From an uncultured archaeon (GTDB taxonomy: Archaea > Asgardarchaeota > Jordiarchaeia > Jordiarchaeales > Jordiarchaeaceae): a stretch of 32,000 nt of DNA. The translations under genes and the position numbers were made by a program. Positions within the stretch are counted from its first letter, which is position 1. Each line of letters starts with the position of its first letter. The notes under the pieces are model-generated. The model did no database searches. It worked only from the letters and a program-made list of their open reading frames with translations, and was not told where the DNA came from. The stretch spans positions 60,001 through 92,000 of the forward strand of contig CAZECW010000187.1 in assembly GCA_964510585.1 (NCBI GenBank), given 5' to 3'. Below are positions 3,960 through 7,557 of the stretch, piece by piece.

Positions 3960-4583
3960 CTATCTTCCTTTTATCCCTAGGAGGATGGCTTGTATTCCAC
4001 GAATTATGAAACCTAAGGATAGGGAAAAGACCAGCAACAAGTAGCCCGCCGAGGGAATTATGAAGTAAAAGCCTATGGGCGGAATGTAGGTACCGTTAAG
4101 CACAAGTAAGAAGGGTGGCCAGTACCACAAGATGGTTCCTAATGTGGGGTTCAACAGGATAAAGAAAGATGCAGTGACAATCAAGATGCCAAAAAACAGT
4201 AGAAGAGCCCTATAACCCGTGTCGAGATCCGAGTCAAATGCTCCTTGGATTATCCCGTTGAAACCGTTAAAAAGCAAACCCACACCCAGAAGTATGATCA
4301 AAATTGAGATGCCAATCAGGGGAAAAACTATCACTATAACTGCTATTACTAAAGATGTTATTCCTAGTACTAGCCATAAAACTCGCCACTCACTGGGAAG
4401 CTCCTTATCCTCCAATCCCACAGAAACTCCCACCAATCCTACGATTAAGAGCGAAAAGGCGAAAAGCAGAATCATGGTGAAAATTGCCACGGTGTAAAAC
4501 AGCCAAACCGCAACTGCAAACGTGATAGCCATTAAACCCAGTATCGCCAACAGAGCTCGATACCAACTAGGTGCTTGACTCAA
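3960..4583 (-). CDS. DUF308/HdeD-like membrane protein
   Basis: Repeated hydrophobic hairpins (LWLVLGITSLVIAVIVIVFP; LLLFFGILIVTASFFILLNP) with G-x3-G patterns; GGAGGAG ribosome-binding site before TTG. Confidence 0.65.
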   Translation of the reverse strand: MSQAPSWYRALLAILGLMAITFAVAVWLFYTVAIFTMILLFAFSLLIVGLVGVSVGLEDKELPSEWRVLWLVLGITSLVIAVIVIVFPLIGISILIILLGVGLLFNGFNGIIQGAFDSDLDTGYRALLLFFGILIVTASFFILLNPTLGTILWYWPPFLLVLNGTYIPPIGFYFIIPSAGYLLLVFSLSLGFIIRGIQAILLGIKGR

Positions 4584-4830
4584 AACAAATTCTCCTCCAA
4601 CTCTTTAAAACAAAAATTCAGTCACACCGTTTAAGACTTACCTGTGAGCAAGTTTTCTAAAACATTCCTCCAACAGAATATACAATACTCCCCCTTTTTT
4701 AGGTGTTTTTCTCCCTTTGGGTGAGTTTGGCTCTTCAAGGTCTTTCCGATTCTAAGGCCCATAATGAATGGTAAGGCAAAAATGCTTTCCATATTCCCTA
4801 CAGACTAAGTCACACCTATTTTTCTCCACA

Positions 4831-4843
4831 AAAAATTTATGTA
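4831..4843 (+). promoter_or_regulatory. Probable BRE/TATA of the tRNA-Lys gene
   Basis: AAAAA-TTTATGTA about 42 nt upstream of the mature tRNA 5' end. Confidence 0.45.
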
Positions 4844-4899
4844 CCCAAACGCTTAATTCTCTAACCGTCCAAAAAAATAACAGCGGGCTGCTAGCTCAG

Positions 4900-4931
4900 A
4901 AGAATGGATTCATATTTATTCGTCTGAGCAA
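4900..4931 (+). other. BHB tRNA intron at position 15/16 (32 nt)
   Basis: Central helix GCUC(4894-4897)/GAGC(4926-4929); bulges AG|A and AA|U; exon helix CUA/UAG; intron helix AGA/UCU. Confidence 0.9.
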
Positions 4932-4970
4932 TTAGGTAGAGCGCCAGGCTCTTAACTTGGTGGTCGCGGG

Positions 4971-5001
4971 AAACCATAAGAGGCGTACTCTGGTTCGCGA
5001 A
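4971..5001 (+). other. BHB-like tRNA intron at position 53/54 (31 nt)
   Basis: Central helix CGCG(4965-4968)/CGCG(4996-4999); bulge GG|A; intron helix AACCA/UGGUU; 3' site AA|U with a weak exon-side helix (relaxed BHB). Confidence 0.88.
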
Positions 5002-5081
5002 TTCGAATCCCGTGCAGCCCGCCTAAACATTTAATTCCACCACATGTCTTTTTTTAAATTTCTCGAAGGAGATATGGTTTT

Positions 5082-6146
5082 TTGGCGGATCTAATTCCTT
5101 GTCTAGTAATCTCTAAAAAGAGGGCACAGGAGGCCAAAATTGTTCTCTCGGAGCTAGGTCTCCTTGACAATAGGATGCGTGTTTCAAGTGATTCCGGAAA
5201 TATTTTTTGGCCTCTGGTTAGGGAGATTTCAGAGAGTGAGCGTTCCATTTTGGAAAGCAGGCTGGGTGTTTTTGAGTTGGCTTACACTGAGCCCAAGCTT
5301 AGGATGAAGCGGCCAAAGAGTATTCTGGAGGAGTTATACGAAAAACTTTCTCCCAGCCAGTTGGCTTCACTGCCCCACTCTTATGATGTGGTGGGCGACA
5401 TTGCAGTGCTTGAGATTCCGCAGGAGCTTTCTGATAAAGGCTCCCTTATAGGTAATGCAGTTTTAAATGTGCACAAAAATGTGAGGGTGGTTTTGGCTAA
5501 GGCTGGGAGGGTAAATGGTGTAACCCGCGTTCGAAAGTTTATTCATCTTGCGGGAGAGAATAGGACAACTACGCTGCATAGGGAGAATGGCTGCGTTTTC
5601 CGGGTGGATTTATCCTCGGCTTATTTTAGTCCACGCCTAGTGACTGAGCATGCCCGCGTAGCAAGACAGGTTTCTCCCGGCGAAGTGGTGGTGGATCTCT
5701 TTGCGGGTGTAGGTCCCTTCTCCATTCAAATCGCTAAAAGGGTGGATGCGCACGTGTATGCCATTGATATTAACGAGTCGGCAGTGGAATTGTTGAAGCA
5801 GAATATTCATTTGAATAAGGTTGAGGGTAGAGTTTTCCCAATCTTGGGCGACGCTCGAAAAGTGGTGGAAGAGAGGCTTTCTTCCAAAGCGGATCGGGTT
5901 ATTATGAATCTCCCAGGCGAGGCTGAGAATTACATTGATGTTGCATGCCGGGCAATTAAGTCGGGGGGAGGAGTAATTCATTACTACCAGTTCTCTACAT
6001 CCGAGTCTGCAGACGAGGTGATTGAATCCCTAACCAGAGGTGTTGAGGCAAGTTCCCGAAATGTGGTTAAAATTCTCGGCTTTAGGAAGGTGCGGCCAAG
6101 CGCACCACGAGAGTGGCAAGTAGTTGTGGATGCACAAATCAAATAA
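5082..6146 (+). CDS. trm5: tRNA (guanine37-N1)-methyltransferase, Trm5 family
   Basis: SYDVVGDIAV, HRENGC.F.VD, YFSPRL..EH.R, VDLFAGVGPF and RVIMNLP motifs; N-terminal D1-like domain present. Confidence 0.88.
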   Translation: MADLIPCLVISKKRAQEAKIVLSELGLLDNRMRVSSDSGNIFWPLVREISESERSILESRLGVFELAYTEPKLRMKRPKSILEELYEKLSPSQLASLPHSYDVVGDIAVLEIPQELSDKGSLIGNAVLNVHKNVRVVLAKAGRVNGVTRVRKFIHLAGENRTTTLHRENGCVFRVDLSSAYFSPRLVTEHARVARQVSPGEVVVDLFAGVGPFSIQIAKRVDAHVYAIDINESAVELLKQNIHLNKVEGRVFPILGDARKVVEERLSSKADRVIMNLPGEAENYIDVACRAIKSGGGVIHYYQFSTSESADEVIESLTRGVEASSRNVVKILGFRKVRPSAPREWQVVVDAQIK

Positions 6147-6298
6147 CCTGTTTCCACATTGAATCACCCAGAAGCTCTCACGCTATACATATTGTGGAGG
6201 GCGGGCTTCCTCGTCTCAATTTTTGTTGGGATAATCCCGAACATGCTAGAATTGTAGACGAATTTTGGAGTTTTTTGTGGAAAACTAGTTGTATCCTT

Positions 6299-6733
6299 TT
6301 AGGGGGCTTCCGCGATTAGGGTTATTTCGACCTTGGTTTGGGGATCCTTCAATTTTTGGACTAGTTCTCTGTTTAGGTCTAGTGCTGCCTTGTTGGCTTT
6401 TATCATTATTGTTCTATCACTGTGGTAGGTGCTTTTTCTCGCCACTATGTCGTGGGGATGGGTGAAGGTTAGGTGGGGGCTCCCCTGGCCCTTAATGGTT
6501 TCTGTTTGGTTGTTGACTTTTAATATCATGGTGATGGTTGAATTTTCTTTTTTCGCCAATTCTTTAAACGATTCGCTGAGCTGTTTGGCTCCCTTATCTG
6601 CGCATACGGCTACTATGCAGTCTCCCCTGATTGTTAAGTCTTCTCTGGTTGTTATTTCTAGGGTTGTTCTGTGTGTGGCGGAAATGTTTGGGTGGCCCCG
6701 TGCATGTATCGTTTCTTTTGCTTTTTTGGCCAA
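6299..6733 (-). CDS. DUF371 domain protein
   Basis: ARGHPNISATHRTTLEIT.E..LT.RGDCIVAV.ADK and IVARKSTY.SDRTIMIKANKAA signatures. Confidence 0.88.
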   Translation of the reverse strand: MAKKAKETIHARGHPNISATHRTTLEITTREDLTIRGDCIVAVCADKGAKQLSESFKELAKKENSTITMILKVNNQTETIKGQGSPHLTFTHPHDIVARKSTYHSDRTIMIKANKAALDLNRELVQKLKDPQTKVEITLIAEAP

Positions 6734-6820: not shown

Positions 6821-7557
6821 TTGGCAAAAAAGGACCTATTGTTTGAAAAGAAAAGACTTCTGGAAGAGTTGAAACGCTCGGGGTTTGTTACTCGGGAAAA
6901 CGTGATGCGTGCGTTCCTAGAGGTTCCCAGGGAAGAGTTTGTGCCCCAGAATCTCAGGGACAAGGCCTATGCTGATCATCCTCTTCCCATTCCTGGAGGT
7001 CAGACTATATCTGCGCCACACAAAGAGCACATATTATGCTTTTTGGGCGTGACATGGTTGTAATGATGTGTGACGTACTAGAATTGGAAGAGGGTATGAA
7101 GGTACTAGAGGTGGGCACGGGGTCCGGCTACCACGCAGCACTATGCGCCGAAATAGTGGCGCCCACCGGCTCTAACGCTAAAGGCCATGTTTACACTATT
7201 GAACGGATTCCAGAATTGGTAGAATTCGCCATAGATAATTTGAGGAGGGCGGGGTACCTTGACCGGGTAACCGTCATCACTGGGGATGGTTCGGAAGGAT
7301 ACAAGGAAATGGCTCCCTACGATGCTATACTCGTCACAGCCGCAGCTCCCAGAGTTCCCCAACCCCTAGTTGACCAACTAAAAATAGGGGGGAGAATGGC
7401 CATTCCCCTAGGAAGCCTCTTTATGTACCAGGAGCTGGTAGTAATTGAAAAAGTGGAGGAGGGCAAAACCAAAAAACAAAGATTCGGCTCAGTAGCCTTC
7501 GTCCCCCTACTGGGAAAATGGGGATTCAGCACGAATTCCAGCTCTTTATCTCTCTAA
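6821..7557 (+). CDS. pcm: Protein-L-isoaspartate O-methyltransferase, intron-containing (join 6821-7019, 7052-7557; 234 aa)
   Basis: Exon 1 encodes VPREEFVP...AYADHPLPIPGGQTISAPH; exon 2 encodes MVVMM...VLEVGTGSGYHAA, APYDAILVTAA and QLKIGGRMAIP. TTG start at 6821 follows GTGGAG. The two track ORFs (6758-7063, 7036-7557) join in frame after removing 32 nt. Confidence 0.92.
7020..7051 (+). other. BHB intron in pcm mRNA (32 nt, frame-shifting)
   Basis: Central helix CGCC(7014-7017)/GGCG(7046-7049); 3-nt bulges AC|A and UG|A; 9-bp intron helix CAAAGAGCA/UGCUUUUUG; exon helix UG/CA. Spliced junction GCG CCA C|AC ATG = A-P-H-M. Confidence 0.88.

Follow-up and report, generated by a model that had tools for sequence, protein, structure and literature searches.

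A hot-spring Asgard archaeon carries a tRNA-Lys(CUU) gene split by two introns at non-canonical sites

The window analyzed here, a 32,000-nucleotide stretch of archaeal DNA, appears devoid of tRNA genes in its unspliced form. ARAGORN reported zero tRNAs in the 32 kb, with or without its intron option (-i), and no Rfam tRNA match reached the gathering score. A permissive Rfam scan (E<=10) of window positions 4700-5200 returned chance-level matches only, and no tRNA. Within this interval, a first-pass annotation had placed a tRNA-Lys(CUU) gene interrupted by two introns, at 4900-4931 and 4971-5001. The question raised by this locus is whether it encodes a working tRNA whose precursor is spliced at these sites, or whether it is better explained by other borders, by gene decay or by an artefact. 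We conclude, with a probability of about 0.9, that 4885-5021 is the sole gene for tRNA-Lys(CUU) in an Asgard archaeon from hot springs, belonging to a Jordarchaeia/Freyarchaeia genus, and that its transcript would be cut by EndA at two bulge-helix-bulge (BHB) introns and its exons joined by RtcB. The gene occupies window positions 4885-5021 on the plus strand and consists of three exons and two introns:

4885-4899 (+), 15 nt: exon 1, tRNA positions 1-15, comprising the acceptor 5' strand, U8, A9, the D-stem 5' strand, A14 and G15; invariant in 6/6 orthologues
4900-4931 (+), 32 nt: intron 1, at site 15/16 in the D loop, with a full hBHBh' motif
4932-4970 (+), 39 nt: exon 2, positions 16-53, comprising the D arm from position 16 onward, the CUU-bearing anticodon arm, the variable loop and the 5' half of the T stem; identical in four species
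4971-5001 (+), 31 nt: intron 2, at site 53/54 on the T stem/T loop junction, with a relaxed HBh' motif
5002-5021 (+), 20 nt: exon 3, positions 54-73, comprising the T loop, the T-stem 3' strand, the acceptor 3' strand and the discriminator G

When the three exons were joined in silico, ARAGORN called the resulting 74-nt sequence tRNA-Lys(ctt). Its acceptor stem has 7 bp without a mismatch, its D stem 4 bp, and its anticodon and T stems 5 bp each. The D loop of the product is AGUUAGGUA and its T loop is UUCGAAU. Both the ARAGORN drawing and direct reading of the sequence indicated that the anticodon CUU and the tertiary bases U8, A14, G18, G19, U54, U55, C56 and A58 are kept. This call was obtained only after removal of both introns: removal of intron 1 alone led ARAGORN to misplace an intron, and removal of intron 2 alone gave no ARAGORN call. 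The exon/intron borders are unable to slide, because the flanking bases differ at each junction. The intron coordinates of the first-pass annotation were exact, and its statement that the canonical 37/38 intron is absent holds for the gene of this genome.

The junctions were then described with a fixed geometric rule. The 5' bulge consists of the last two exon bases and the first intron base, the four preceding exon bases pair with intron bases n-5 to n-2, and the 3' bulge consists of the last two intron bases and the first base of the next exon, each strand being cut behind the second base of its bulge. This scheme agrees with Yoshihisa 2014 (PMC4090602), according to which the first two anticodon bases sit in the 4-bp helix, and canonical 37/38 introns from three relatives fit it as well. 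Both introns of the tRNA-Lys(CUU) gene display opposed 3-nt bulges with a 4-bp helix between them. Intron 1 has the 5' bulge AG^A (the caret marks the junction), the central helix GCTC/GAGC (4/4 pairs) and the 3' bulge AA^T, and intron 2 has the 5' bulge GG^A, the central helix CGCG/CGCG (4/4 pairs) and the 3' bulge AA^T. In intron 1, the outer helix h and the inner helix h' are each 3 bp long, giving a strict hBHBh' motif, with the caveat that the MFE fold of this intron is slipped; in intron 2, h is 0 bp and h' is 5 bp, giving a relaxed HBh' motif. The bulges, the helices and the distinction between a strict and a relaxed motif agree with what had been described for this locus before.

To place the gene among its relatives, six distinct versions were compared, collected by BLAST and by pattern scans of public genomes and metagenomes. 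A BLAST search of 40 related genomes with the 137-nt locus found it, with introns, in 5/5 other genomes of the genus. The metagenome pattern scan added one orthologue, and the covariation statistics are therefore based on n=6 sequences. Matches to the exon pattern were limited to records of Candidatus Jordarchaeia, Jordarchaeum madagascariense and Freyarchaeota, including the closed chromosome CP147778.1, and DNA of the locus occurs in hot-spring metagenome runs; among the runs listed as containing window positions 4300-6300, none was an RNA run. By exon pattern matches, the lineage is Asgard (Jordarchaeia/Freyarchaeia) and not TACK, the group from which the first-pass annotation had mainly known multi-intron tRNAs.

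The predicted folds raise the alternative that the gene is real and has other borders, the slipped MFE helices setting the cut sites and intron 2 lying one base later on both sides, which would place A54 in the position of U54. In the local MFE fold of the intron-2 region, the central helix grows to 6 bp and the 5' bulge moves by one base. In the MFE fold of intron 1, the AGA repeated across the 5' junction gives rise to a slipped helix of 7 bp (GCUCAGA/UCUGAGC), within which the 5' splice site is buried. Imposing the BHB form in silico (37 °C) carries a penalty of about 10 kcal/mol in intron 1 and of about 3 kcal/mol in intron 2. However, a central helix of 6 or 7 bp is not a BHB. The borders listed above give A14, G15, G18, G19 and the T loop UUCGAAU, features that shifting would break, and they hold in all orthologues. 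In addition, G53 joins T54 directly in the two versions lacking the 53/54 intron (that of genome G005 and the metagenome locus L152), which fixes the 53/54 border. Shifted borders are thus improbable, and the 15/16 and 53/54 sites are retained in what follows.

Since the MFE fold hides the intron-1 BHB, cleavage at this site would depend on an enzyme that selects or induces the bulged form. The second AGA at the 5' junction of intron 1 is retained in all orthologues (as GGA in one variant), a requirement of the bulged form. The outermost pair of the intron-1 4-bp helix is mismatched in 3/6 orthologues; this mismatch and the missing outer helix of intron 2 speak against the BHB reading.

A different explanation is that the locus is a decaying tRNA pseudogene with two insertions, AAG being read by another tRNA, such as tRNA-Lys(UUU) through wobble pairing. 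Rejection of the locus by standard tRNA finders and an MFE fold without the first BHB would fit this explanation. In contrast, the pattern of conservation argues for a maintained gene. The mature sequence is identical at 74/74 positions across four species. Among these species, 5-10 aligned positions vary in the 15/16 intron and 3-8 in the 53/54 intron, and identity in the 80-nt flanks is 56-91%. In the most divergent pair of the four species, differences numbered 0/74 in the exons vs. 18/64 in the introns (Fisher p = 2e-7). This exon-intron pattern exceeds chance, and the constant exons beside drifting introns indicate that the tRNA-Lys(CUU) gene is under purifying selection. Moreover, the inserts keep BHB geometry and end exactly where the canonical cloverleaf requires.

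The precursor structure was evaluated on the same alignment. In the proposed structure, 98% of alignment cells pair, vs. 25-41% when the partner columns are slid (six sequences). Only two double changes were found, C-G to U-A and A-U to U-A, both in the intron-2 hairpin and both with pairing kept. Covariation thus supports the predicted precursor structure and is not strong alone, six related sequences being a small sample.

The rest of the genome bears on the pseudogene explanation as well. The genome is a MAG of 217 contigs and 3.78 Mb, 96% complete and with 4.8% estimated contamination. A BLAST search with the mature sequence found no second Lys(CUU) anticodon-arm exon in this 96%-complete genome, and tRNA-Lys(CUU) is therefore single-copy here. 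This statement rests on BLAST, a regular-expression scan for Lys arms being too noisy (364 mostly random matches). An intact tRNA-Lys(CUU) elsewhere, which the first-pass annotation had named, together with a missing spliced 74-nt product, as the mark of a pseudogene, was accordingly not found by BLAST. The 15-nt exon 1 recurs once, on contig C209, within a tRNA-Lys(UUU) gene (C209:8073-8235, plus strand) that is interrupted by three BHB introns, one of 30 nt at 15/16, one of 29 nt at 30/31 and one of 30 nt at 53/54, and that becomes an ARAGORN-valid tRNA after splicing. Both Lys isoacceptors thus carry the 15/16 and 53/54 sites, with intron sequences diverged except at their ends. If splitting at these two sites marked a pseudogene, tRNA-Lys(UUU), which is additionally split at 30/31, would have to be one too.

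Further tRNA genes were reconstructed by spliced alignment with the table of a sister genome as a guide, giving 16 distinct ARAGORN-valid genes, a sample of the inventory. Introns were present in 15/16 of them and two or three introns in 10, and the tRNA-Gly(CCC) gene is likewise split behind position 15. For the sister genome, an intron at this place is tabulated for Gly-CCC, Pro-GGG, Ile2-CAT and Lys-CTT, and the tRNA-Lys(UUU) orthologue is flagged 'possible pseudo' (PMC11291895). The tabulated intron coordinates of that tRNA-Lys(UUU) yield no valid tRNA, and the published coordinates of the sister genome gave a valid mature tRNA for 22/37 genes tested. The tRNA-Lys(CUU) gene is therefore unexceptional in its genome, as most of the tRNA genes there are similarly split.

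Over the whole genome, ARAGORN called 5 tRNAs without its intron option and 9 with it (several of them spurious), and the Rfam tRNA model scored above its cut-off 7 times. Failure of ARAGORN and Rfam at an intact locus hence reflects a limit of the tools and is not evidence against the gene. The prediction that standard annotation could miss this tRNA held for these two programs, but not for tRNAscan-SE in archaeal mode, which found the orthologue (PMC11291895). Taken together, we consider a decaying pseudogene very improbable, and the single-copy gene remains the preferred reading.

That the inserts are an assembly or binning artefact has a negligible probability: the fragmentation and estimated contamination of the MAG would allow it, but DNA contigs from runs of four studies (two of these runs may be the source sample) carry the locus with introns, and so do the other five genomes of the genus, among them a closed chromosome validated by long reads. 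One of the four contigs differs at five bases, one in intron 2 and zero in the exons.

The genome encodes a set of enzymes that could process such a precursor. Two loci each carry PF02778 and PF01974, the N-terminal and catalytic domains of EndA. EndA-1 (192 aa, contig C157) matched the Aeropyrum pernix alpha subunit best, end to end, with E = 3e-45. It retains the Tyr/His/Lys triad, its His aligning with the residue mutated in the PDB 3AJV chain. The EndA-1 segment GIRKPKSPQF aligns with DVEKPRGADF of A. pernix, placing K at K44 and K at R46, and the K-P-K lies in a 9-residue insert relative to EndA-2. This loop of the A. pernix enzyme, together with its K44, confers a broad substrate range that includes D-loop introns (Hirata 2011, PMC3241643). 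EndA-2 (198 aa, contig C126) has Thr in place of the catalytic His and is closest to M. jannaschii EndA. In the two-unit EndA model NF006795 (NCBIfam), EndA-2 corresponds to the N-terminal unit and EndA-1 to the C-terminal catalytic unit. This make-up is that expected for an (alpha-beta)2 enzyme, whose assembly, activity and specificity are predicted from the sequences. Classification of the EndA subunits, proposed in the first-pass annotation as a check, thus gave two genes, EndA-1 with the full triad and the His-less EndA-2, and the broad-specificity endonuclease it had anticipated is consistent with a catalytic subunit bearing the Crenarchaea-type loop lysine and a second subunit.

In a wider survey, two EndA paralogues of about 190-220 aa were found in 35/41 Asgard genomes searched, this one included, and each pair comprised one high-scoring and one lower-scoring member against the catalytic-domain model. 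A two-subunit EndA thus seems to be the rule among sampled Asgard genomes and not special to the intron-rich genus.

RtcB is encoded by one gene in the genome. The RtcB gene itself has an in-frame TGA and contains a 30-nt BHB-type insert (contig C58:3762-3791; helix CCCG/CGGG), which splits LPD from AHQGYG within the metal-binding motif. The ligase mRNA therefore seems to require splicing itself. In addition, two ArcTGT-like genes were found, whose open frames (545 and 683 aa) include a TGT domain and would fit a conversion of G15 to archaeosine. The first-pass annotation had placed splicing ahead of archaeosine-15 and U54/U55 modification, an order that is hypothetical here.

We propose the following course of events. 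Transcription would yield a precursor of about 137 nt plus a leader and a trailer, in which each insert and the adjoining exon would fold into a BHB, with a 4-bp helix formed by the exon end and the 3' end of the intron and with two 3-nt bulges. A tRNA-splicing endonuclease, presumably of (alpha-beta)2 type and composed of the catalytic subunit with the Crenarchaea-type lysine loop and the His-less structural subunit, would cut both bulges of both motifs, and RtcB would join the three exons into the 74-nt tRNA. CCA would then be added to the 3' end, because the gene encodes only CC. Cutting, joining, subunit assembly, the promoter and terminator described below, and the order of splicing relative to base modification are all predicted steps of this scheme.

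The flanks and the downstream neighbourhood contain the following features:

4826-4844 (+), 19 nt: A/T-rich motif CCACAAAAAATTTATGTAC, identical or one base off in 6/6 loci, within a flank that otherwise diverges
5049-5055 (+): run of seven T, 28 nt past the tRNA 3' end; a T run also occurs in close relatives
5082-6146 (+): gene for a Trm5b/Taw22-like tRNA (m1G37) methyltransferase, 60 nt 3' of the tRNA and on the same strand
about 6848-7557: pcm, for protein-L-isoaspartate O-methyltransferase, 2 kb downstream and split into two reading frames
7020-7051 (+), 32 nt: BHB-type insert in pcm, with the helix CGCC/GGCG and a 9-bp inner helix

The A/T-rich motif probably serves the tRNA gene as its BRE/TATA promoter element, and the T run is probably a transcription stop ahead of the trm5b-like gene. 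In the other genomes of the genus, a reading frame begins at a similar distance downstream of the tRNA. As a separate observation, excision of 7020-7051 restores the conserved pcm motif TISAPH^MVVMM, and the insert resembles a tRNA-type intron, here within a protein-coding gene. A neighbouring P-type ATPase was also considered as a lineage marker and was uninformative, the family being too widespread.

Tracts of this kind have been described before in closely related organisms. In three complete genomes, two of Atabeyarchaeia and one of Freyarchaeia, 92-95% of tRNA genes bear introns, more than half of the tRNA genes are multi-intron, and many sites are non-canonical (Valentin-Alvarado et al. 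2024, Nat Commun, PMC11291895). Supplementary Data 4 of that study lists, from tRNAscan-SE in archaeal mode, Lys CTT at 2242144-2242267 with introns 2242159-2242186 and 2242210-2242228. This published gene (CP147778.1) is exactly the orthologue found by BLAST in G005, a genome of the same genus. It shares with the present gene the 15/16 site, where the boundary bases (AG^A...AA^T) are identical, and a trm5b-like frame at a similar downstream distance. In contrast, its second intron is at 37/38 and none is at 53/54, the reverse of the gene here, and it differs further in the T loop TCCGATT and in compensated stem-pair changes. The intron-rich tRNAs of the genus and the orthologue of this gene are thus already published (PMC11291895, 2024). 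What is new is modest: the species-variable intron set, the sites common to both Lys isoacceptors and the EndA pair described from sequence.

More distant parallels are found outside the Asgard archaea. Multi-intron tRNAs of this kind have been known in Thermoproteales since the early 2000s. Pyrobaculum islandicum tRNA-Pro(UGG), for example, has introns at 25/26, 37/38 and 56/57 (Sugahara 2007/2008, reviewed in PMC4090602). As in the genome studied here, the Thermoproteales genes have several short BHB/HBh' introns at non-canonical sites, 53/54 being listed, together with a two-subunit EndA (PMC4090602). Unlike it, they belong to the phylum Thermoproteota, the text of PMC4090602 does not name a 15/16 site, and the sharing of two sites by both Lys isoacceptors is a difference of the present genome. 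The pre-tRNA-Thr(UGU) of Aeropyrum pernix likewise has a D-loop BHB intron, cleavage of which requires K44 of the loop (Hirata 2011, PMC3241643; PDB 3P1Z). EndA-1 resembles the subunit of the A. pernix (alpha-beta)2 enzyme in its end-to-end alignment and in keeping the Crenarchaea-specific loop lysine, a likeness of sequence. In contrast, EndA-2 is nearer to M. jannaschii EndA and the N-terminal unit than to any crenarchaeal PDB beta chain.

The six variants of tRNA-Lys(CUU) differ in their introns as follows:

15/16 intron: 6/6 variants, 28-32 nt, with variable loop sequence
53/54 intron: 4/6 variants, 30-31 nt
37/38 intron: 3/6 variants, 15-19 nt

One species of the genus has all three introns (15/16, 37/38 and 53/54). 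Outside the genus, one genome from a sister family of the order carries a 22-nt 53/54 intron with the same CGCGAA end and lacks the 15/16 intron. The 53/54 site is therefore probably the older one, predating the genus and lost in one branch. The tRNA-Lys(CUU) genes of other Asgard genomes are either uninterrupted or split in the variable loop or T loop. The two orthologues without the 53/54 intron (L086:1501-1621 of G005, and L152:4784-4902 on the minus strand) both have the T loop TCCGATT, in which C replaces the near-universal U at position 55 and T stands at 59 (U55C, A59U), and both carry two compensated T-stem changes. Tentatively, the intron set of tRNA-Lys(CUU) may be turning over within this one genus, with 53/54 lost, and 37/38 gained or kept in another branch; we regard this as possible and rather doubtful.

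A single gene of this type matters little, as it is one more case of what was already published for its genus in 2024. Its 53/54 intron is an addition, being absent from the published sister genome, which indicates that intron content varies between close species. In practical terms, ARAGORN and Rfam overlook almost the entire tRNA set of the lineage, and tRNA counts of such MAGs are therefore unreliable without an intron-aware tool. If the gains and losses are recent, the gene series could reveal the route by which BHB introns are gained or lost, such as reverse splicing or cDNA recombination, and such a series, if true, would concern the closest archaeal relatives of eukaryotes. Moreover, the intron load is linked here to a two-subunit EndA whose catalytic chain has a loop so far called Crenarchaea-specific, a link that may be relevant to the evolution of the heterotetrameric eukaryotic enzyme and its substrates.
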